Part shown: positions 26,190 to 58,984 of the stretch, one piece after another
Layout: the number at the start of each line of letters is the position of its first letter
How positions within the stretch are numbered: the stretch's first letter is position 1
Source of the DNA: Frigoriflavimonas asaccharolytica
GTDB lineage: Bacteria; Bacteroidota; Bacteroidia; Flavobacteriales; Weeksellaceae
Assembly (NCBI RefSeq): GCF_013294015.1
Contig: NZ_JABSNO010000003.1
Span: forward strand, 78,746-142,745
DNA length: 64,000 nucleotides
Direction: 5' to 3'
Made by a program: the position numbers and the translations under genes
Notes under the pieces: generated by a model
What the model was told of the DNA's origin: nothing
Databases searched by the model: none
The model's input: the letters and a program-made list of their open reading frames with translations, nothing else

Positions 26190-28979
26190 TCAAATTAACT
26201 TCTCCGCAATATACTTCGCTGTTTTAGATATTTTATTTTTTGCTAAATTTTCTGGCGTACCTTCAAATACGATTACGCCACCATGTTTACCGGCTTCTGG
26301 ACCGAGATCTATCACCCAATCTGCAGATTTTATAATGTCTGGTTGATGCTCAATTACGATTACAGAATGTCCTAATTCTATTAAAGCATTGAAGGAAATT
26401 AGCAACTTTTTGATATCATGAAAATGCAAACCAGTGGAAGGTTCGTCGAAAATAAATAAGACTTTTTCTGCCGTTTTTCCTTTCACCAAAAATGAGGCAA
26501 GTTTCACACGTTGCGCTTCTCCACCAGAAAGTGTGGAAGAACTTTGTCCTAGTTGCAGATAGCCCAAACCAACATCTTGCAAAGGTTGCAATTTCGTGGC
26601 TATTTTATTTTGTTTATTATCATTAAAAAACTCGATAGATTCGTCTACCGTCATGTGCAAAATATCCGAAATATTCTTTTCGTCATATTTAACTTCTAAA
26701 ATTTCTTTTTTGAAACGCGCACCTTTGCAAACTTCGCATTCCAATTCTATATCTGCCATAAATTGCATTGCAACCGTGATAACGCCTTCTCCTTTGCACT
26801 CATCACATCTTCCACCATCTACATTGAAGGAGAAATGTTTGGTTTTGTAGCCCATCATCACAGATAATTTTTGCTTGGCATACAATTCTCGAATATCGTC
26901 GTAGGCTTTCAAATAGGTAACAGGATTGGATCTGGAAGATTTCCCAATAGGATTTTGATCTATTAATTCTATATTTCTCACCAAATTTAATGGAAATTCT
27001 ACAGAATCATAATCCATTTTTTTGCCACCCATTCCCAATTGAATTTGCACTTCTCGGGTCAGAACTTCTTTCATTAAGGTAGATTTTCCACTACCAGAAA
27101 CGCCCGAAATTACAACCAAACATTCCAAAGGAATATTTACATCTACATTTTTAAGATTATTTTCTCTCGCACCTTTTATTTTAATAAATTCTTTGGCTTT
27201 CCTTCTCTTCGTGGGAATTTCTAATTCTAATTTTCCAGTGAGATAGTCGGAGGTTAATGTATTTGCGTTTTTCAATTCATCATAAACTCCAGCAAAAACC
27301 AATTCGCCACCTAAATATCCAGCTTCCGGACCAATATCTATAATGTAATCTGCAGCTTTCATCATATCTTCATCATGTTCTACAACGATGACGGTGTTTC
27401 CAAGATCTCGCAGATTTTTTAAAACTTGGATGAGGTTTTCTGTATCGCGAGAATGCAAACCGATGGAAGGCTCATCAAGAATATAAATACTCCCAACCAA
27501 AGAACTTCCGAGAGATGTTGCTAAATTTATCCGCTGACTTTCCCCACCAGAAAGGGTATTTGACGTTCTGTTGATGCTCAAGTATCCTAGACCAACTTTC
27601 ATCAAGAATTCTAATCTTGTGATGATTTCGTAGAGCAATCTTTTGGCAATTTCTGCATCATGATCCGTTAAATTTAAACCTTTCATCAATGGTAAAAGCT
27701 CGTCCAAAGGCAATTCTACGGTAGATTGTATGTTGTGGCCATCAATTTTTACCCAAGAAGATTCTTCTCGCAAACGCAAACCATCACAGCTATAGCATTT
27801 GGTTTTGCCACGAAATCTGGAAAGCATTACACGGTATTGGATTTTGTATAAATTTTCTTCTACCATTTTGAAGAAATTATCTATAGAAGGAAAATCTTTC
27901 TTGCCATCTCCTTTCCACAAATAGTTTTTTTGCTCTTTAGATAATTCAAAATAGGGTTTGTGTATCGGGAAATCTTTTGCAGCTTTGATGAATTTTCTTT
28001 TCCATTCACTCATAGAGTCGCCTTTCCAAGCGGTAACTGCATCTTCAAAAACGGATAGATTTTTATTTGTAATTACTAAATCTTCATCAATACCAATCAC
28101 TTTTCCGTAGCCTTCGCAAGTTGGGCAAGCTCCTAAAGGATTATTAAAACTGAATAAATGTACGGTTGGTTCTAAAAATTCTTTGCCGTCTAATTCAAAT
28201 TTGTTAGAAAATTCTCGTATTTCATTAGTCTCCATGTTTTTTAGAGAGCAATATCCATGACCTTCGTAGAATGCCATTTGTATAGAATCTGCTAATCTTT
28301 GCTGAAAACTTTCATCTTCTTCATAGTTAAATCTATCGATGACCAGATGAATTTCCATATCTTTTTCTGGCACAAATCCAAAACTTTCTAAATCTTCTAT
28401 TCCGGCTACATTTCCATTTACTTCCAATCTTGTGAAACCTAGCAATTTTAAAGATTTTAAACTTTCTTCAAATTTTTCTGTTTCAAAGACTAAAGGCGTT
28501 CTTAATAAAAAAGAAACATCTTTTCCTGCTTTTTTGATGAAATCCATTACATCAGAAACGGAATCTTTCTTCACTTCCTCGCCAGAAATTGGGGAAAATG
28601 TGTGGCCGATTCTCGCAAAGAGTAACTTCATATAATCGTAGATTTCTGTAGAAGTTCCTACGGTAGAGCGAGGGTTGCTAGAAATAACCTTTTGCTGAAT
28701 AGCGATAGATGGAGCCAAACCCTTGATATCGTCGATTTTCGGTTTTTCTAATTTTCCAAGAAATTGGCGTGCATAAGAACTCAAACTTTCTACGTATCTG
28801 CGTTGTCCTTCTGCATAAATAGTATCAAAAGCGAGGGAAGATTTTCCGCTGCCAGAAACACCTGTGATCACGATTAATTTATTTTTCGGAATAAGTACAT
28901 CTATATTTTTTAAATTATTTAGATGCGCATTTTTTACGAAAAGTTGAGTTTTTATATTGATATTTTCTAGTGTAACCAT
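26190..28979 (-). CDS. uvrA: excinuclease ABC subunit A
   Basis: 929 aa with two ABC ATPase modules (GVSGSGKSSLAFDTIYAEGQRRYVESLS...; second GVSGSGKSTL) and zinc-finger Cys clusters. Confidence 0.9.
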   Translation of the reverse strand: MVTLENINIKTQLFVKNAHLNNLKNIDVLIPKNKLIVITGVSGSGKSSLAFDTIYAEGQRRYVESLSSYARQFLGKLEKPKIDDIKGLAPSIAIQQKVISSNPRSTVGTSTEIYDYMKLLFARIGHTFSPISGEEVKKDSVSDVMDFIKKAGKDVSFLLRTPLVFETEKFEESLKSLKLLGFTRLEVNGNVAGIEDLESFGFVPEKDMEIHLVIDRFNYEEDESFQQRLADSIQMAFYEGHGYCSLKNMETNEIREFSNKFELDGKEFLEPTVHLFSFNNPLGACPTCEGYGKVIGIDEDLVITNKNLSVFEDAVTAWKGDSMSEWKRKFIKAAKDFPIHKPYFELSKEQKNYLWKGDGKKDFPSIDNFFKMVEENLYKIQYRVMLSRFRGKTKCYSCDGLRLREESSWVKIDGHNIQSTVELPLDELLPLMKGLNLTDHDAEIAKRLLYEIITRLEFLMKVGLGYLSINRTSNTLSGGESQRINLATSLGSSLVGSIYILDEPSIGLHSRDTENLIQVLKNLRDLGNTVIVVEHDEDMMKAADYIIDIGPEAGYLGGELVFAGVYDELKNANTLTSDYLTGKLELEIPTKRRKAKEFIKIKGARENNLKNVDVNIPLECLVVISGVSGSGKSTLMKEVLTREVQIQLGMGGKKMDYDSVEFPLNLVRNIELIDQNPIGKSSRSNPVTYLKAYDDIRELYAKQKLSVMMGYKTKHFSFNVDGGRCDECKGEGVITVAMQFMADIELECEVCKGARFKKEILEVKYDEKNISDILHMTVDESIEFFNDNKQNKIATKLQPLQDVGLGYLQLGQSSSTLSGGEAQRVKLASFLVKGKTAEKVLFIFDEPSTGLHFHDIKKLLISFNALIELGHSVIVIEHQPDIIKSADWVIDLGPEAGKHGGVIVFEGTPENLAKNKISKTAKYIAEKLI

Positions 28980-35660: not shown

Positions 35661-37136
35661 TTAAAGTCCATTCAAAAACTCTTCCGCATTTTTATAATGT
35701 GCACTACGTTTCTCCTCATCCATTTTAGTAAAAGTATGGTACATCATACCAACTCTCGGATTTCCTTTGAAAAAATCTTGATTTTCACCAACAAACCTCC
35801 AAAATAATCCGTCCCAAATTTTGTCCCAATCTCCAGAAGGGTAGTTGCTCATTTTTTTGATGTAATTAGAACCGCTTAAATACGGTTTGGTAGCGAAAGT
35901 TCCACCATCTGCAAATTGGCTCATTCCGTAGATATTGGGAACCATCACCCAATCATAAGCATCAATAAATAATTCCATAAACCACTGGTACACTTCATCT
36001 GGATCTATTTCGCAAAGCAACATGAAATTTCCCAAAACCATTAATCTTTCGATATGATGACAATATCCGGTTTTCAAAACTTTTTTTATCGTCTCATCAA
36101 TTGCTGGAATTCCCGTAGTTCCATCATAAAAACTTTTTGGCATTTTTCTCTTGAAACCAAAGAAATTTTTATTTCTAGAAAATACGCCTTTTGCCAAATA
36201 CATTCCGTGAATAAACTCGCGCCAACCTATAATTTGACGAATAAAACCTTCCAAAGAATTGAGTGGAATTTCGTTCTTCTTTGCAAAATTTAAGGTTCGT
36301 TCAACAACTTGCATTGGCGTAAGTAAACCTGCATTCATCAACGGAGAAAGCAAACTATGGTTAAGAAAATGTTCTTTTTCTACTATCGCATCTTCATAAA
36401 TACCAAAATCGTGGAAACGAAAATCTAAAAACTGCTCCAACCAATTTTCTGCTTCTTCATGTGTTGCTGGATAATATGAATTTTCTGAAATTTCGCCTAA
36501 ACTTTGAGCAAAATTATTTTGAACATAAAGTACTGCTTCCTTCCAATACGCAGATTTTTCTGGAAAATCTATGCTTGGTGGAATTTTATTTTTCGGATAT
36601 TTCTTGCGATTATCTGCATCATACGTCCATTTTCCACCTTCGGGATTTCCGTTTTCGTCAATTAATATATTTAAACGAATTCTTTCTTCTTTATAAAATG
36701 AAGTTTGGAAATAGGATTTTTTATTGGGATCAAAAAATTTTTGCAAATCTTTGAGATTATTGATGAAATAAGGAGTTTCTAAAATATTTAGTTGAATGTT
36801 TTCCGAAACTTTTGCCAATCTTTTTTCCAAATTAAAATCTGCAGGATAAAGCACATTTATTTCTGTAATATTTTTAGAATCTATTTCTTTATTAAATTTT
36901 CTAATATCAGAGCATTCAGTTTCACTTTCTATATAATGTACTTTTGCTCCTTTTTCTTCTAAATATTTTTGATAATATTTCATAGAAGCACGATGAAAAG
37001 CCAACTTTTGTTTATGAAATTTGTATTGTTGGAAAAATAAATATTCTTCTACCAAATAAAAATCGCCTTTATTTTCTAGTAAAGGATTATCTGCAATCAA
37101 CTGATGCGGAAAAACTATATTGATTATTTTAGACAT
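35661..37136 (-). CDS. cryptochrome/photolyase-family protein (COG3046-like photolyase-related protein)
   Basis: 491 aa with a GWREF motif and C-terminal aromatic-rich FAD-pocket-like segment (WDKIWDGLFWRF). Lacks the 4-Cys FeS-BCP signature. Confidence 0.55.
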   Translation of the reverse strand: MSKIINIVFPHQLIADNPLLENKGDFYLVEEYLFFQQYKFHKQKLAFHRASMKYYQKYLEEKGAKVHYIESETECSDIRKFNKEIDSKNITEINVLYPADFNLEKRLAKVSENIQLNILETPYFINNLKDLQKFFDPNKKSYFQTSFYKEERIRLNILIDENGNPEGGKWTYDADNRKKYPKNKIPPSIDFPEKSAYWKEAVLYVQNNFAQSLGEISENSYYPATHEEAENWLEQFLDFRFHDFGIYEDAIVEKEHFLNHSLLSPLMNAGLLTPMQVVERTLNFAKKNEIPLNSLEGFIRQIIGWREFIHGMYLAKGVFSRNKNFFGFKRKMPKSFYDGTTGIPAIDETIKKVLKTGYCHHIERLMVLGNFMLLCEIDPDEVYQWFMELFIDAYDWVMVPNIYGMSQFADGGTFATKPYLSGSNYIKKMSNYPSGDWDKIWDGLFWRFVGENQDFFKGNPRVGMMYHTFTKMDEEKRSAHYKNAEEFLNGL

Positions 37137-37139
37137 ATT

Positions 37140-37268
37140 TTATTTATTTCTACGGCATTTTTCACTGCAATATTTCACTTCTTCCCAATTTTTCTCCCAT
37201 TTTTTTCTCCAAGAAAAAGGAAGTTTACAGACTGGGCAAATTTTTGTGGGCAAATCAGATTTTTTCAT
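37140..37268 (-). CDS. DUF2256-like small zinc-ribbon protein (42 aa), not in ORF track
   Basis: Manual translation gives [46 protein letters not shown]...CSEKC arrangement and WRKKW motif typical of DUF2256. Its ATG overlaps the upstream gene stop as ATGA. It ends 3 bp before the next gene's start. Confidence 0.65.
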
Positions 37269-37894
37269 TCAAACTCTGGTATTTCCGACGTTCTTACGTA
37301 TGGAAAAGTGTCTAATTTGGATAAACTATAATAAGAATTTAAACCTGAAATTCCTGCAGATTTAGATTTTTGTAAATCTATTTGTCCTAAATTATTCACC
37401 AAATCATCTGCTAAAATTAATTGCTCCACATTACCAATAATAAATTTGCAATCGTTTGGTAAATCTATAATGCTAGATAATTTCATTCCAATTTTAATGG
37501 GACTTTCTTTTACAAATGGTGCGAAAAAATCTTCTACATATTCTTTTTCAATGTTCATTCTATCAAATTCAGATTCTTCCGAACCTAATTTTGCAGAAGT
37601 ATAATGCGCTTTTTTTATTAAATTTTCTGGAATGTGGTTGATGCTGTACCTTTCCGTGGATTTAATATTTTTAAAAGTATCGCTTTCTTTTTCTACTTGC
37701 GGTCTCAAAACGAACGCCAATTGTGCAGGATGAGAACCCAAATGTACAACGGAAGAAATAACGGCAACATTTTCTACACCTTCTTCAGATTTTGTTGCTA
37801 TTAAGTTGGCAGGTTTTATTCCGGTGATGGAATTGATGAGATTTAATCTGTATTTACGTTCCAGATTTTCTATTTTTGATTTTTTTAAATTCAT
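37265..37894 (-). CDS. flavin reductase-like (FMN-binding split-barrel) family protein
   Basis: 209 aa, pattern consistent with flavin reductase-like domain proteins; lies within the photolyase-related cluster. Confidence 0.55.
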
Positions 37895-37913: not shown

Positions 37914-37990
37914 CTCTCGCAGATTTTTCAAATTTTGCAGATTTTTGTATAAAAATAAATAATCTGCATCATTAGCAAAATCTGCGAGAG
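37914..37990. promoter_or_regulatory. nested inverted repeat (GCAGATTTTT units) in an intergenic spacer of the photolyase-related cluster
   Basis: Outer arms ctctcgcagatttt (37914-37927) and aaaatctgcgagag (37977-37990). Inner arms ttgcagattttt and aatctgca. Confidence 0.4.
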
Positions 37991-38000
37991 AAAGATCTTT

Positions 38001-38957
38001 TTAATTTTCAAATTCTTTTTGCAACACTTTTTTAATTTTTTTCCAGAAATTAAAAAATGAAGGAAAATCGCCGTAAATATTGGTCAATGTCTCTCTTTCT
38101 TCTTTAATTCCCAAATAATGAGCATTGGTTGGATGTTCTTTATAAATAATATTTTCTTTTGAAATAATTTTATTTAAATCAGAAAATTCACTAATAATAA
38201 TTTTTATATTAGGAATATTTTCGGATAAATTTAGAGCAAAATCTAGACATTTTTCTGATACGGGAAATTGCTTAAAATGGGAAGTTTCTAATAATAATAT
38301 TCTTTGAAAATTGTCTTCTAAATGCCAATTGAAATCTAAATTGTAGTAATTGTAAACTAGAGTTTTTTCATTATTAAGGATAGGATTTTCTATTTTTGGA
38401 AGCATTGTTTGCAAATTCAAAACCTCTACATCTTTTAAAATTTCGGGAATTTGTAAATCAGGTAATGTAGAATAATCAACATCCATGAAAGTATCTTTCT
38501 GATTACCTTCAAAATATTTATTAAAATTTTCTTGATTTGCAAAATATTTTTTGCTAGAAAAACTTCCAGCAACCCATTGCCAACTTAAATGATTGCTTGC
38601 CAAATCTCCATCTAGCAAATTATAATACAACCATTTTGCAGGATTGAACCAGTGAGAATGTGCAATATTACAAGTGATAGAAGCAATGTACATCCGCAAA
38701 TGGTTGTGAATATATCCGCTTGTATAAAGTTCAGAAATGCCTTTGTCTATAATATTTATCCCAGTATTTCCTACAAAAATTGCCTTTGGAATTTCCCAAT
38801 TTTCTACATTTTCTTGCATTTTCTTTAAATCTGAAAATATCAAATCTTGTTTTGCTTTGTAAACTTCTTGAAAAAAATCTCTCCAAGCCAATTCTTGCAC
38901 TAATCTTTCTACCTCAAACCATTGCAAATTTAAAGTTTTCAAATGCTCAAAAACCAT
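38001..38957 (-). CDS. photolyase/cryptochrome FAD-binding-domain-like protein, atypical (lacks N-terminal alpha/beta domain)
   Basis: The first ~140 aa carry WRDFF, TGINIIDKG...HNHLRMY and LLDGDLASNHLSWQWVAGS motifs. In canonical photolyases these lie in the C-terminal third. About 170 further residues follow with no clear motif. Confidence 0.6.
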   Translation of the reverse strand: MVFEHLKTLNLQWFEVERLVQELAWRDFFQEVYKAKQDLIFSDLKKMQENVENWEIPKAIFVGNTGINIIDKGISELYTSGYIHNHLRMYIASITCNIAHSHWFNPAKWLYYNLLDGDLASNHLSWQWVAGSFSSKKYFANQENFNKYFEGNQKDTFMDVDYSTLPDLQIPEILKDVEVLNLQTMLPKIENPILNNEKTLVYNYYNLDFNWHLEDNFQRILLLETSHFKQFPVSEKCLDFALNLSENIPNIKIIISEFSDLNKIISKENIIYKEHPTNAHYLGIKEERETLTNIYGDFPSFFNFWKKIKKVLQKEFEN

Positions 38958-39097
38958 TTTTGTAGATATTGCACCACGAGAAATGTACGGGCTTAAATGC
39001 GTGACAGCACCATTTCCAAAATTTCTAGTGGAAGAATATTTTACAGGATTTATCTCAGAAATCCTTGTTTTTATCGCTGATATGGAAGTTGGGAAGT

Positions 39098-39367
39098 CTA
39101 TCGCTTTGAAATTTTATTGTTGGAAATTGCATTCTGCCGAGAACATTTGAAGCGAGAAATATCATCGCTTCGTTTTTTGAGGTGTTTTTTGCTAACACCA
39201 GAATTCACTCGTTTTCGCCATAATTTGAAAGAACTTTCTTTCAATTCGGTGCGCATTAGTTGAATAACATCTGCTTCTGCAAAGCCAAATTGGAATTTTA
39301 TGGCTTCAAAAGGCGTTCTATCTTCCCATGCCATTTCTATGATTCTATCTGTTTGTCTGTCTGTCAT
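39098..39367 (-). CDS. DUF2132/TIGR03643-like small protein
   Basis: IIEMAWEDRTPFEAIKFQFG motif, which I recall as characteristic of the DUF2132 family. Basic C-terminal tail. Confidence 0.5.
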   Translation of the reverse strand: MTDRQTDRIIEMAWEDRTPFEAIKFQFGFAEADVIQLMRTELKESSFKLWRKRVNSGVSKKHLKKRSDDISRFKCSRQNAISNNKISKR

Positions 39368-39450: not shown

Positions 39451-40215
39451 TTAAAGTTTCTCTGTCAAATATTTCCAATATCTTTTTGGTACGTGTTGGT
39501 AGTGTAATTTCAAGTTTTTTCGTTCGGGTATATTTGTTTTAAAAAAGTAGCGTTGCCACAACTTTTGGTATCTTTTTTCTTCATCATGCAGCAATTCATC
39601 TATCTTTTGAAACTGATATATTTGGTCAGATTCTGGATTAAAAAATTCCATTGTTTTCAAATCGTAAAAAACGCCGTAGTGTCTTTTCAAATCGTAAATC
39701 ATCCACTTTTGGTCTTGATATCGATCTTTAAAGTGCTTCACAATTAAGGGTAAAACATTAAAATCTGGTTCAATCTTCGCAAAATAAACATCATCTTTCA
39801 ATTTTTCAAACCGTACAAAAGCGTGCATTCTGTGGATTTCTCTATTGACGGATTTATTTATTTTTGCAATTTCCAAAATTTCATCGTCGCTGTAATTTAA
39901 TAAAACATCAACAGTAGGATTTTTAATTGATTTTTTTACGGCATTTAAAACTAAAAATTCTACATCTTTTCTTTCGGATAAATATACTTTCAGCAATTTT
40001 GAAACTCCAGTTTTACCGATATTTTTTTCTAATTTTTTTAAAACTCTATCTGATTTTTCAATAGAAGTTAGCACTTCATGAAGATTTGAAAACATGTTTT
40101 CACTCAAATAATTTTCTTTAGCAATTATTTCTGCTGGCTCATATTTATATTCAAAAACCTCGAATATTGCGGTAAATAAGCCTTCAAAACTGCCATCATA
40201 GAGTAGAGTAGTCAT
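39451..40215 (-). CDS. TIGR03915/DUF4130-like probable DNA metabolism protein (partner of radical SAM TIGR03916)
   Basis: 254 aa; abuts the upstream radical-SAM gene with no gap. N-terminal MTTLLYDGSFEGLFTAIFEVFE pattern resembles this family. Confidence 0.5.
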   Translation of the reverse strand: MTTLLYDGSFEGLFTAIFEVFEYKYEPAEIIAKENYLSENMFSNLHEVLTSIEKSDRVLKKLEKNIGKTGVSKLLKVYLSERKDVEFLVLNAVKKSIKNPTVDVLLNYSDDEILEIAKINKSVNREIHRMHAFVRFEKLKDDVYFAKIEPDFNVLPLIVKHFKDRYQDQKWMIYDLKRHYGVFYDLKTMEFFNPESDQIYQFQKIDELLHDEEKRYQKLWQRYFFKTNIPERKNLKLHYQHVPKRYWKYLTEKL

Positions 40216-41472
40216 TTAAAATAAACTAAGTTGCTCTGAAAAAGGGTTCTGAAATTTCGATTTCATACTATTCATTATAATTTTTTTAAAATTTTGCTCC
40301 TCAATATATTTGTTGAAAATATTTGGATTGTCAAATTCAACAAAATATTTTGCTCTATTTAAAGCAACGCCCATTTTCTTTAAATTTTCTAAAGTCAGTT
40401 TTTGAAAACGTCTTGCATTAATGATTTTATTCACCGATTTTCCGCCAATTCCTGGAATTCTCATCAGCATTCCTTTGGATGCAGTATTTACGTTGATAGG
40501 AAATTGCTCGCGATGACGCAAAGCCCAAGCCAATTTTGGATCTACTTCTAGGTCTAAAAATGGATTTTCTTTCTCCAAAATTTCATGTGCTTTAAAACCA
40601 TAAAAACGCATCAACCAATCTGCTTGGTACAATCTATTTTCTCGCAGCATTGGAACTTGAGAATCTATGGAAGGCAATCTCGCATCCGTCAACATTGGCA
40701 CGTAGCCAGAATAATAAACTCTTTTTAGATTGAAATTTTGATAAAAATGATCTGCAACTTTTATAATTTTTAAATCGGTTTCGTCTGTTGCTCCCACAAT
40801 CATTTGGGTAGATTGTCCGGCAGGTGCAAATTTTGGAACTTTTCTAAAGATTTTTTTCTCTTCTTTGTACAATGCCAATTCATTTTTTACAAAACCCATT
40901 GGTTTGATCATCTCGGAATGAGATTTTTCTGGTGCTAATAATTTTAAACCTTTTTCTGTAGGAATTTCTATATTGATAGAAAGTCTATCTGCATAAAGTC
41001 CTGCTTCTTTCATGATTTCATCACTTGCGCCAGGAATGGATTTTAAGTGAATATATCCGTTAAAATTATGCTCTAAACGTAATTTTTTTGCTACCCGAAC
41101 CAAACGTTCCATGGTGGTATCTGAATCTTTGAAGATCCCAGAACTTAAAAATAAACCTTCAATATAATTTCTACGGTAGAAATTCATCGTCAAATCTACC
41201 ACCTCTTCTACAGTGAAGGCTGCACGTTTGATATCGTTTGTTTTGCGGGAAACGCAGTAGGCACAATCATAGATGCAATGATTGGTTAAAAGAATTTTTA
41301 AAAGTGAAACGCATCGTCCATCTTCAGTGTACGAATGGCAAATACCGGAAGCATGACTGTTTCCTAAGCCGCCGTTGTTTTTACGATTTCCACCACTAGA
41401 AGAGCAAGAAACATCGTATTTTGCTGCATCTGCGAGGATTTCTAATTTTTCTTTTATGCGTTCTAAATTCAT
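40216..41472 (-). CDS. putative DNA modification/repair radical SAM protein (TIGR03916-like) with C-terminal HhH
   Basis: CIYDCAYC CxxxCxxC radical-SAM cluster motif. C-terminal helix-hairpin-helix (MLMRIPGIGGKSVNKIINAR). Confidence 0.75.
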   Translation of the reverse strand: MNLERIKEKLEILADAAKYDVSCSSSGGNRKNNGGLGNSHASGICHSYTEDGRCVSLLKILLTNHCIYDCAYCVSRKTNDIKRAAFTVEEVVDLTMNFYRRNYIEGLFLSSGIFKDSDTTMERLVRVAKKLRLEHNFNGYIHLKSIPGASDEIMKEAGLYADRLSINIEIPTEKGLKLLAPEKSHSEMIKPMGFVKNELALYKEEKKIFRKVPKFAPAGQSTQMIVGATDETDLKIIKVADHFYQNFNLKRVYYSGYVPMLTDARLPSIDSQVPMLRENRLYQADWLMRFYGFKAHEILEKENPFLDLEVDPKLAWALRHREQFPINVNTASKGMLMRIPGIGGKSVNKIINARRFQKLTLENLKKMGVALNRAKYFVEFDNPNIFNKYIEEQNFKKIIMNSMKSKFQNPFSEQLSLF

Positions 41473-57814: not shown

Positions 57815-58984
57815 TTAATCCACAATTCTGCGTTCGATATCCATTGGCAATCTTGCTAAAAGTTCATAATTTAATTGATTGCTAAATTCGCTAAAGGAAG
57901 AAACTGTCAACTCTTGATCGCCTTGTTTACCTATTAAAACCACTTCATCGCCAATTTTTGCATTGGGCAGATTCGTAATATCAATAGTTAGCATATTCAT
58001 ATTTATCGTACCAATCACATCTTCCCGATTTCCATTTATTAAAACCTTACCCTGATTGCTTAAACCTCTAGCATAGCCAAAAGCATAACCAACTGGTAAG
58101 ATGGCTATTTTTGTAGGAATATTGGTGTAAAATGCGGTACCATAACCAATAAATTCACCCGCTTTCACAATTTTGGTTTCTATAATATTTGTTTTCCAAG
58201 AAATTACACGCTTCAAAGGATTTTCTTGAATTTTATTTTTCAATGCGTAATATATAAAAGTTTCGTTGTTTGGAAAATATCCGTATTGCAAAATTCCAAC
58301 TCTTGCCATATCAAAAACATACTTTGGGTACCGAAGAATTCCAGCGGAACAAGCAACATGATATAGCGGTTTCAAATGCTCTTCTGTAGCAAATCTCTTT
58401 TTTATTTTTTTAAATACTTTTATCTGGTCAGCAATTCTCTTAAAATTCGTAACGCTTTCAGAACCTGCTAAATGCGTACAAACACCTTTTATTTCTAATA
58501 AATTTTCATTTTCCTTTATTAATGAAATTACTTTCTCCAAACGAGAAAAATCTATACCAGTCCGGTTCATTCCTGTTTCAAATTCTAAATGAATTTTCGC
58601 AGATTTTGATAGTTTTTTGGCACATTTCAAAGCTCTTTCCAGCGATGAAATATTGATGATATAAAATTCTACACCATTTTCTATGGCCCAAATCATTTCT
58701 GTTTTAGTTAAATTTCCTAAAATCAAAAGAGTATAATCACCATTGATAGCATTTAAAAATCTTTCAGCTTCTTGAGCTCCATAAAGAGAAAAATGCCTAA
58801 CTCCACAATCATATGCAAGTTGGCAATAGGTTTCTATATCGTGCCCATAAGCATTTCCTTTTACTACAGAAGATAAAATAGTTTTTTCGCCCAACATATT
58901 TTGGATGAAATCTATGTTGTTCTTCAATGCGCTTTTAGATAATTCTAGCCAAGAAGTAGTTTTTAGTTTAGATTGCATTTTCAA
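57815..58984 (-). CDS. alanine racemase family PLP enzyme
   Basis: VVKGNAYGHD matches the alanine racemase PLP-lysine signature (VVKANAYGHG). C-terminal beta domain. Confidence 0.7.
   Translation of the reverse strand: MKMQSKLKTTSWLELSKSALKNNIDFIQNMLGEKTILSSVVKGNAYGHDIETYCQLAYDCGVRHFSLYGAQEAERFLNAINGDYTLLILGNLTKTEMIWAIENGVEFYIINISSLERALKCAKKLSKSAKIHLEFETGMNRTGIDFSRLEKVISLIKENENLLEIKGVCTHLAGSESVTNFKRIADQIKVFKKIKKRFATEEHLKPLYHVACSAGILRYPKYVFDMARVGILQYGYFPNNETFIYYALKNKIQENPLKRVISWKTNIIETKIVKAGEFIGYGTAFYTNIPTKIAILPVGYAFGYARGLSNQGKVLINGNREDVIGTINMNMLTIDITNLPNAKIGDEVVLIGKQGDQELTVSSFSEFSNQLNYELLARLPMDIERRIVD

Follow-up and report, generated by a model that had tools for sequence, protein, structure and literature searches.

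This study concerns a gene on the minus strand of a 64,000-nucleotide stretch of the Frigoriflavimonas asaccharolytica genome (contig NZ_JABSNO010000003.1, positions 78,746 to 142,745; here called the window, with positions counted from its first nucleotide). The gene had been flagged as an open reading frame (ORF) of 318 amino acids (aa) with photolyase motifs, and we consider it highly likely that it encodes a photolyase of the NewPHL/SPL class, resembling the Bacteroidetes subgroup Ba, with reversed domain order and a length of 366 aa counted from an ATA start codon. The catalytic domain comes first, the active-site residues are conserved, the reading frame extends upstream of the annotated start without a canonical start codon, and an ATAG or ATAA junction with the preceding gene recurs among relatives. 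Enzymatic activity and substrate preference are predicted by homology.

Domain order and class assignment

The flagged ORF was 100% identical to WP_226927420.1, which RefSeq/PGAP describes as "FAD-binding domain-containing protein" of F. asaccharolytica (FAD, flavin adenine dinucleotide). The initial annotation had placed photolyase FAD-pocket motifs near the N-terminus, and all of them were found at the expected positions: WRDFF at residues 25-29, TG...HNHLRMY at residues 65-90, and DGDLASNHLSWQWVAGS at residues 116-132 (318-aa numbering). The sole Pfam domain was FAD_binding_7 (residues 20-154, profile positions 2-139 of 203, E 3.9e-24), and NCBIfam photolyase/cryptochrome models matched the same stretch at scores far under their cut-offs. 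Photolyases in the PDB aligned, with their own residues ~240-440, only to residues ~16-168 of the ORF. Pfam detected no alpha/beta domain of the PF00875/PF04244 type before the FAD domain, the arrangement that defines canonical photolyases and cryptochromes (class I/II/III, DASH, and FeS-BCP), and no such domain was present in the 80 related genome loci that were kept out of 582 confirmed relatives or in the 120 best homologues. Moreover, all 80 kept loci were collinear with the 366-aa query, from residue 1-3 to about 348-366, and shared the catalytic-first layout. The tail that had been described as unassigned, with the motifs LDFNWHLEDN and RILLLETSH (residues ~207-216 and ~219-227 in the same numbering), indeed gave no Pfam match over the last ~165 residues of the ORF. 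We conclude that a canonical N-terminal domain is absent from the gene and from the relatives surveyed alike.

To place the active site, the family profile was aligned to E. coli photolyase, of which it covered residues 220-389. The alignment to the structure 1dnp equated E70, W73, N133, M137, and W176 (366-aa numbering, used from here on) with the E. coli substrate residues E274, W277, N341, M345, and W384, and R136, D164, and N170 with the E. coli FAD residues R344, D372, and N378; all eight positions were invariant or nearly so in 44 homologues. R74 and D166 are further active-site equivalents. W174 and W151, the counterparts of E. coli W382 and W359, were invariant, whereas the column of E. 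coli W306 was not Trp in the profile, and W102 of the window protein was not conserved in the family. Foldseek comparison of the full model with the PDB returned canonical photolyase and cryptochrome catalytic domains only, over ~205-240 columns. To our knowledge, no NewPHL structure has been solved.

Proteins of this layout have been described twice, in papers cited here from excerpts of their text. Emmerich et al. (NAR 2020; PMC7736829) reported NewPHLs as exclusively bacterial proteins of down to about 300 aa that lack an antenna domain. Their N-terminal catalytic domain has all of the residues for repairing cyclobutane pyrimidine dimers (CPDs) and is followed by a C-terminal Z-domain of ~150 aa, of a fold unknown at the time, which has a single conserved Trp as well as a GFF motif and is predicted by covariation to seal the FAD site. 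NewPHLs have a Trp dyad instead of a triad, use FAD as sole cofactor, and co-occur with a class I or bacterial (6-4) photolyase but almost never with DASH proteins, and the two members tested, from D. shibae and M. mesophilicum, repaired CPDs in single-stranded DNA (ssDNA) only (PMC7736829). Xu et al. (MBE 2021; PMC8476157) named the SPLs independently and stated that they are the same class as NewPHL. Their subgroup Ba is from Bacteroidetes, is represented by Cyclobacterium marinum, and lacks the four FeS cysteines of subgroups C and Ac, and their RfSPL repaired CPDs in a light-dependent but weak manner (PMC8476157).

The window protein resembles this class in several respects. Even when extended to 366 aa, it starts only where E. 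coli photolyase has residue ~200-220, such that the catalytic domain is N-terminal, and it retains a Trp dyad. As in subgroup Ba, FeS cysteines are absent, since the 366 residues include only two Cys and no CxxC. The tail of ~135 aa is conserved across homologues, with W259 and S348-F349-F350 invariant among the 44 and GGFM in one distant relative. Finally, the protein was 56% identical (E about 1e-115) to proteins from Cyclobacterium amurskyense and C. sediminis.

One way in which these features could mislead is if the protein were a flavin photoreceptor or regulator, cryptochrome-like, with the Z-domain as its effector or interaction module. Such a possibility was raised for the C-terminal extensions of SPLs, of which RfSPL gave only weak repair (PMC8476157), and repair by members of the Bacteroidetes subgroup is predicted only. 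We think a photoreceptor improbable. The CPD-binding residues for repair, equivalent to E. coli E274, W277, N341, M345, and W384, are all conserved, whereas the signaling-type NewCRY lacks conserved residues such as E274 and N341 (PMC7736829). Moreover, light-dependent CPD repair was demonstrated for two NewPHLs and for RfSPL (PMC7736829, PMC8476157), and the gene lies in a DNA-repair neighborhood with a (6-4) photolyase homologue and the putative DNA-repair pair TIGR03915/TIGR03916.

Some points weigh against the assignment to NewPHL/SPL. The motif in the tail is SFF, not GFF, and its equivalence to the published GFF is presumed. A8LJA9, M7YZC8, RfSPL, and CmSPL were compared by their published descriptions and not by sequence. 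Because the Bacteroidetes subgroup has no assayed member, the substrate is extrapolated, ssDNA from subgroup A and CPD repair from subgroups A and Ac.

With NewPHL/SPL as the preferred assignment, a mechanism can be proposed. The N-terminal all-alpha domain would bind FAD and, through the five substrate residues, form the pocket for a flipped-out CPD, which an electron from light-excited FADH- would split. Photoreduction of FAD would proceed along the two-Trp chain of W174 and W151. The alpha/beta Z-domain would pack on the catalytic domain and seal the flavin site, a role that the N-terminal antenna domain has in ordinary photolyases. By analogy with the D. shibae and M. mesophilicum NewPHLs, the substrate would be CPD in ssDNA and there would be no antenna chromophore.

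The N-terminal extension and the proposed start codon

The initial annotation noted that only ~140 bp separate the ORF from the next gene and that no antenna domain could be encoded upstream. Both the distance and the absence of the domain were correct, as a gene of the DUF2805 family lies only 140 bp upstream and therefore leaves no room for an antenna domain, but the interval is not a spacer, for the frame continues through it for 48 sense codons. A concealed antenna domain, whether upstream or in a different frame, was thus ruled out, as the 140 bp encode the beginning of the catalytic domain in-frame and are followed by the DUF2805 gene. Upstream of the ATG at 38957, the same frame is open for 52 codons back to the nearest stop, a run with a chance expectation of ~0.016 at the window's 32% G+C. 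Those 52 codons include no ATG, GTG, or TTG, and 48 of them match the N-terminus of the family, leaving only 4 codons between the conserved N-terminus and the upstream in-frame stop. Homologues are mostly 362-374 aa long and have ~48 further N-terminal residues with the consensus FPTD..I..RI..IDP..Y..TRNF.DGAVT.LSPYISRGVIST, which the translated extension, IDFPTSISAIKTRISEINPVKYSSTRNFGNGAVTHLSPYISRGAISTK, matches.

The extension could be an untranslated relic, with the 318-aa protein from ATG 38957 as the real product, and indeed that ATG is the sole canonical start in the frame and the one that PGAP calls. Several results make this unlikely. First, Y22, R26, G31, P38, S41, R42, and G43, seven residues of the extension, were invariant across the 44 homologues, and the profile alignment to 1dnp put E. 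coli Y222, R226, and T234-S238 inside the extension, residues that contact the FAD phosphate and the DNA backbone. Second, AlphaFold2 modeled the 366-aa protein with a predicted local distance difference test score (pLDDT) of 93.9 and a predicted template modeling score (pTM) of 0.91, in which residues 1-50 formed an integral part of the helical domain at pLDDT 87-96. Third, over the 48 codons in 13 loci without a canonical start ("start-less"), the nonsynonymous rate dN was 0.17-0.42 while the synonymous rate dS was saturated (1.5 or more, or undefined), which argues that the codons are translated and under strong purifying selection. Fourth, the Met at which the 318-aa protein begins was not conserved, being E, Q, R, D, or K in other start-less orthologues. 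The first canonical start instead shifts among start-less genomes, from residue 49 in the window to ~53 in Halpernia and 36 and 62 in Cyclobacterium, and gene callers therefore yield products of 318, 314, 325, and 305 aa. We conclude that the annotated ORF is very probably truncated at its N-terminus and that the predicted product is 366 aa long.

To find where translation might begin, the junction with the upstream gene was surveyed in 85 related loci, 80 of them retained from the genome scan and the other 5 obtained through protein look-ups, in a tally that includes the window's own junction. The codon aligned with Met1 of the orthologues is ATA in the window and forms an ATAG overlap with the TAG stop of the DUF2805/TIGR03643 gene. 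DUF2805 was directly upstream, with stop and start overlapping or closely spaced, in 49 of the 85 loci. A classical ATGA overlap occupied the same junction in 9 loci, and TAGTG or TAATG occurred in others. ATAG or ATAA without a canonical start before the conserved domain was found in 10 loci, which span at least two classes of Bacteroidota: the window, L005, L016, L017, L020, L034, L041, L081 (Halpernia frigidisoli), L084 (Cyclobacterium amurskyense), and L085 (C. sediminis). All of the ATA loci fell within one clade of a neighbor-joining (NJ) tree. The genus Kaistella has both kinds of start, as the proteins of K. jeonii and K. polysaccharea (P0028 and P0048) begin MDFPT and MEFPT with ATG, and K. 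chaponensis has ATC-GAG-TTT-CCA. Separately, the conserved position of DUF2805 upstream of NewPHL genes suggests a functional link between the two, a pairing that the excerpts of the NewPHL and SPL papers do not mention (PMC7736829, PMC8476157).

The ATA codon could also indicate a pseudogene or a sequencing or assembly artifact, as a single G-to-A change converts ATGGAC into ATAGAC and might have inactivated the start of a normal gene. The same ATA junction, however, recurred in 9 other loci, which belong to different families and classes, and the 366 codons in the window are intact, free of stops and frameshifts, and under purifying selection. Moreover, 51 of the 120 best homologue clusters were called at 335 aa or shorter, and each of the short-called clusters that were checked (4/4) was start-less in the same way. 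We therefore regard inactivation or artifact as extremely improbable. The earlier suggestion of a truncated or rearranged gene thus fails if it means a pseudogene or the loss of an antenna domain and holds in another sense, in that the ORF as read was cut short at its 5′ end by 48 codons.

Alternatively, the extension could be translated without any start of its own, if a −1 ribosomal frameshift at TCA AAG or TCA AAA just before the DUF2805 stop joined DUF2805 and NewPHL into one protein of about 455 aa. NewPHL lies in frame −1 relative to DUF2805, the two frames share an open window of 16 nt, and a Lys slip site, A AAG or A AAA, was present in 9/10 of the ATA-type loci compared to 1/12 of the canonical-start loci with an overlapping (+1) junction. 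Shared ancestry can nonetheless explain that correlation, given that the ATA loci all belong to a single clade in the NJ tree. A canonical X XXY YYZ heptamer was not found, one of the ATA-type loci (L016, TCG AAA) has no slip site, and other start-less loci have no DUF2805 upstream. A natural DUF2805-NewPHL fusion was likewise not found, and the N-terminal extensions of homologues of 445 and 460 aa gave no Pfam match to DUF2805. Frameshifting is, in our judgment, very improbable.

Initiation at the ATA itself is accordingly preferred to frameshifting, although not every observation favors it. ATA is a poor initiator in bacteria where it has been measured, and a literature search gave no precedent for AUA starts in Bacteroidota. 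The −3 base of the proposed start is G, and A is favored at −3 in Flavobacterium (PMC6847099). Moreover, 6 start-less loci (L001, L002, L023, L025, L082, and L083) had ATC or ATA at the start-aligned codon and no DUF2805 upstream, and therefore coupling to DUF2805 is not a general explanation. Near-cognate AUN starts do exist, such as the AUU of infC in E. coli. In the window, the overlap of the DUF2805 stop with the proposed ATA start makes DUF2805 a likely partner in translational coupling. Initiation at the ATA would occur by termination-reinitiation coupling, by weak near-cognate initiation, or by both, and either route would give low, coupled expression. On comparative grounds, we conclude that translation probably begins at ATA 39101, overlapping the DUF2805 TAG.

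The position of the start has practical consequences. As these genes have no ATG, GTG, or TTG, their RefSeq models are very probably truncated at the N-terminus, both for the window gene and for at least four relatives that were checked, and expressing or modeling the database sequences would delete part of the FAD site. Bacteroidota ribosomes ignore Shine-Dalgarno sequences, and in the start-less loci nature provides a clean test of AUA/AUC initiation and of stop-start coupling in that phylum.

The C-terminal domain

The initial annotation saw a faint resemblance of the tail to the N-domain of photolyases and raised the possibility of circular permutation, to be checked by structure prediction of the whole protein. 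The AlphaFold2 model gave a compact C-terminal domain, in which residues ~245-366 formed a five-stranded alpha/beta fold with a long C-terminal helix, and the tail modeled alone kept that fold at pLDDT 87.3. In a fold comparison, the part of photolyase that aligned with the tail was presumably the N-domain, because the N-domain is the sole alpha/beta part of a photolyase. Universal-stress and HAD-type Rossmann-like folds came next with comparable Z, and the alignments spanned only 80-100 residues. The resemblance in the model agrees with the remark, in the excerpts of Emmerich et al., that the contact map of the Z-domain resembles that of the antenna domain (PMC7736829).

Homology between the two domains was not supported to the same extent. 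When the Z-domain model was compared with the PDB by Foldseek, the best E was 0.025, to generic Rossmann-like methyltransferases, and there was no photolyase in the top 50. In an hhalign comparison of 84 Z-domains with 58 DPRP N-domains, the probability was 0.8%, with a single 25-column match at the equivalent beta2-alpha2 position, which was not significant. A phmmer search with the Z-domain against 1.8 billion representatives found 210 proteins, and in the full-length ones the domain was at the C-terminus of a protein of 355-460 aa and in no case at the N-terminal end of a canonical photolyase. As homology of the Z-domain and the N-domain is unproven, we conclude that circular permutation of a canonical photolyase is plausible and not established. 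In a separate observation, two distant NewPHL relatives, P0201 (460 aa) and P0230 (445 aa), had ~85 extra N-terminal residues that gave no Pfam match and were not DUF2805.

A broader reading, to which we give roughly even chances, would combine the start and the tail. A deep Bacteroidota lineage of NewPHLs would have no canonical start and would initiate at AUA or AUC exactly where the ancestral AUG stood, in many genomes within an ATAG/ATAA overlap with the DUF2805 stop. Annotations of the family in these taxa would be systematically short by 35-60 residues that include FAD contacts. Synthesis of the photolyase would depend on termination-reinitiation coupling at the near-cognate codon, its small output would be stoichiometrically linked to that of DUF2805, and DUF2805 would be a dedicated partner of this ssDNA photolyase. 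The Z-domain might also be an antenna-type domain that has changed place, which would bear on whether NewPHLs are ancestral or derived.

Gene neighborhood and comparison with known systems

The gene lies within a minus-strand UV-repair cluster in the order TIGR03916, TIGR03915/DUF4130, DUF2805, NewPHL, hairpin, flavin-reductase-like, DUF2256, and DPRP-type photolyase (Table 1), which by gene content we regard as a putative UV-damage repair island. TIGR03916 and TIGR03915/DUF4130 are a putative DNA repair or modification pair directly upstream of DUF2805, and the order is the same in Halpernia frigidisoli (L081). For DUF2805 itself, there was no match in the PDB, and the literature consisted of one uninformative metagenome-correlation paper.

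Table 1. Features of the NewPHL gene and its surroundings in the window
Feature	Position	Strand	Details
Proposed full NewPHL/SPL photolyase coding sequence	38001..39101	-	366 aa, with stop at 38001-38003; frame open from 39113
ORF as flagged and RefSeq-annotated	38001..38957	-	318 aa; begins at internal ATG
N-terminal extension, 48 codons	38958..39101	-	Encodes IDFPTSISAIKTRISEINPVKYSSTRNFGNGAVTHLSPYISRGAISTK; no ATG/GTG/TTG
ATA, proposed noncanonical start	39099..39101	-	Aligns with orthologue ATG; overlaps TAG 39098-39100
All-alpha catalytic (FAD- and CPD-binding) domain plus linker	38406..39101	-	Residues 1 to ~232; Pfam, Foldseek
C-terminal Z-domain region	38004..38405	-	Residues 233-366; modeled as Rossmann-like alpha/beta, five strands; W259 and S348-F349-F350
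TIGR03916 radical-SAM	40216..41472	-	NCBIfam
TIGR03915/DUF4130	39451..40215	-	Abuts TIGR03916 gene at 40215/40216
DUF2805/TIGR03643	39098..39367	-	89 aa; basic C-terminal tail
Imperfect palindrome/hairpin	37914..37990	-	77 nt, 33-nt arms, 85% complementary; begins 11 nt after photolyase stop
Flavin-reductase-like	37265..37894	-	
DUF2256 Cys4 mini-protein	37140..37268	-	42 aa; under the 50-aa ORF cut-off
DPRP/FeS-BCP-type (6-4) photolyase homologue	35661..37136	-	E 3e-81 to 7ykn/8a1h/4dja

The (6-4) photolyase homologue lies 865 bp downstream of the NewPHL gene, and such a homologue was present in 58/86 loci (the window included) within the flanks fetched. A 10-residue deletion in the window's copy removes the CxxC...C cysteines of the [4Fe-4S] cluster, and the same cysteines were missing from all of the NewPHL-neighboring (6-4) homologues with a parsable motif (30/30). 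Judging from these motifs, the homologue appears to be an FeS-less Bacteroidota variant. The start of DUF2256 overlaps the stop of the flavin-reductase-like gene by 4 bases (37265-37268), and DUF2256 ends 3 nt before the (6-4) homologue. The presence of a flavin reductase among photolyase genes could have to do with the supply or reduction of flavin.

The palindrome downstream of the NewPHL gene folded as RNA at −33 kcal/mol (z = −5.9), and 0/200 shuffles folded as well. It is a probable RNA hairpin that would serve as a terminator or stabilizer, and it may alternatively be an operator. A 13-mer within it, TCTCGCAGATTTT, was considered as a repeated intergenic element and rejected, as the copy at 27406 is inside a long ORF (26190..28979) and the copy at 58595 has one mismatch and no comparable palindrome. 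The hairpin was therefore treated as local. A scan for sigma-70 promoters and terminators, not built for Bacteroidota promoters, gave counts near shuffle expectation.

Compared with the characterized NewPHLs (DsNewPHL, A8LJA9, and MmNewPHL, M7YZC8), the window protein is alike in having the catalytic domain first, no antenna domain, a CPD site, a Trp dyad, a presumed Z-domain of ~135-150 aa with one Trp and an xFF motif, and a (6-4) photolyase in its genomic company (PMC7736829). Those NewPHLs are alphaproteobacterial and about 400 aa long with GFF, whereas the window protein is from Bacteroidota and 366 aa long with SFF; the missing canonical start and the DUF2805 overlap are features of the window gene that the excerpts of that paper do not mention (PMC7736829). 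With subgroup Ba and CmSPL, the protein shares a Bacteroidetes origin and the lack of the four FeS cysteines, and the 56% identity is to proteins of two other Cyclobacterium species. The SPL paper describes the C-terminal part as a variable-length extension (PMC8476157), whereas the AlphaFold2 model predicts a compact alpha/beta domain.

More distant systems share single elements. Class I CPD photolyases (E. coli PhrB, 1DNP; Synechococcus, 1TEZ/1OWL) have a homologous catalytic domain (profile E 1e-17 to 3e-22) in which the contact residues for FAD and CPD are shared, whereas the window protein lacks the PF00875 antenna domain, the interdomain linker, and the third Trp and has an extra C-terminal alpha/beta domain. 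DASH cryptochromes have the same proposed niche, CPD repair in ssDNA, but have the canonical two-domain order and a methenyltetrahydrofolate (MTHF) antenna. ATGA-type stop/start overlaps, known from translational coupling, have the same four-base overlap, which is ATAG in the window gene and ATAA in some relatives, with ATA as the start codon. As the NewPHL/SPL class was described in 2020-2021, the reversed architecture was already known and adds nothing new here. The useful additions are the probably mis-set start, with an ATA on the DUF2805 stop that recurs in Bacteroidota, the DUF2805-NewPHL pair, and a fold for the Z-domain that is predicted with confidence. We conclude that the gene is an ordinary member of a recently described class, neither novel nor a pseudogene.

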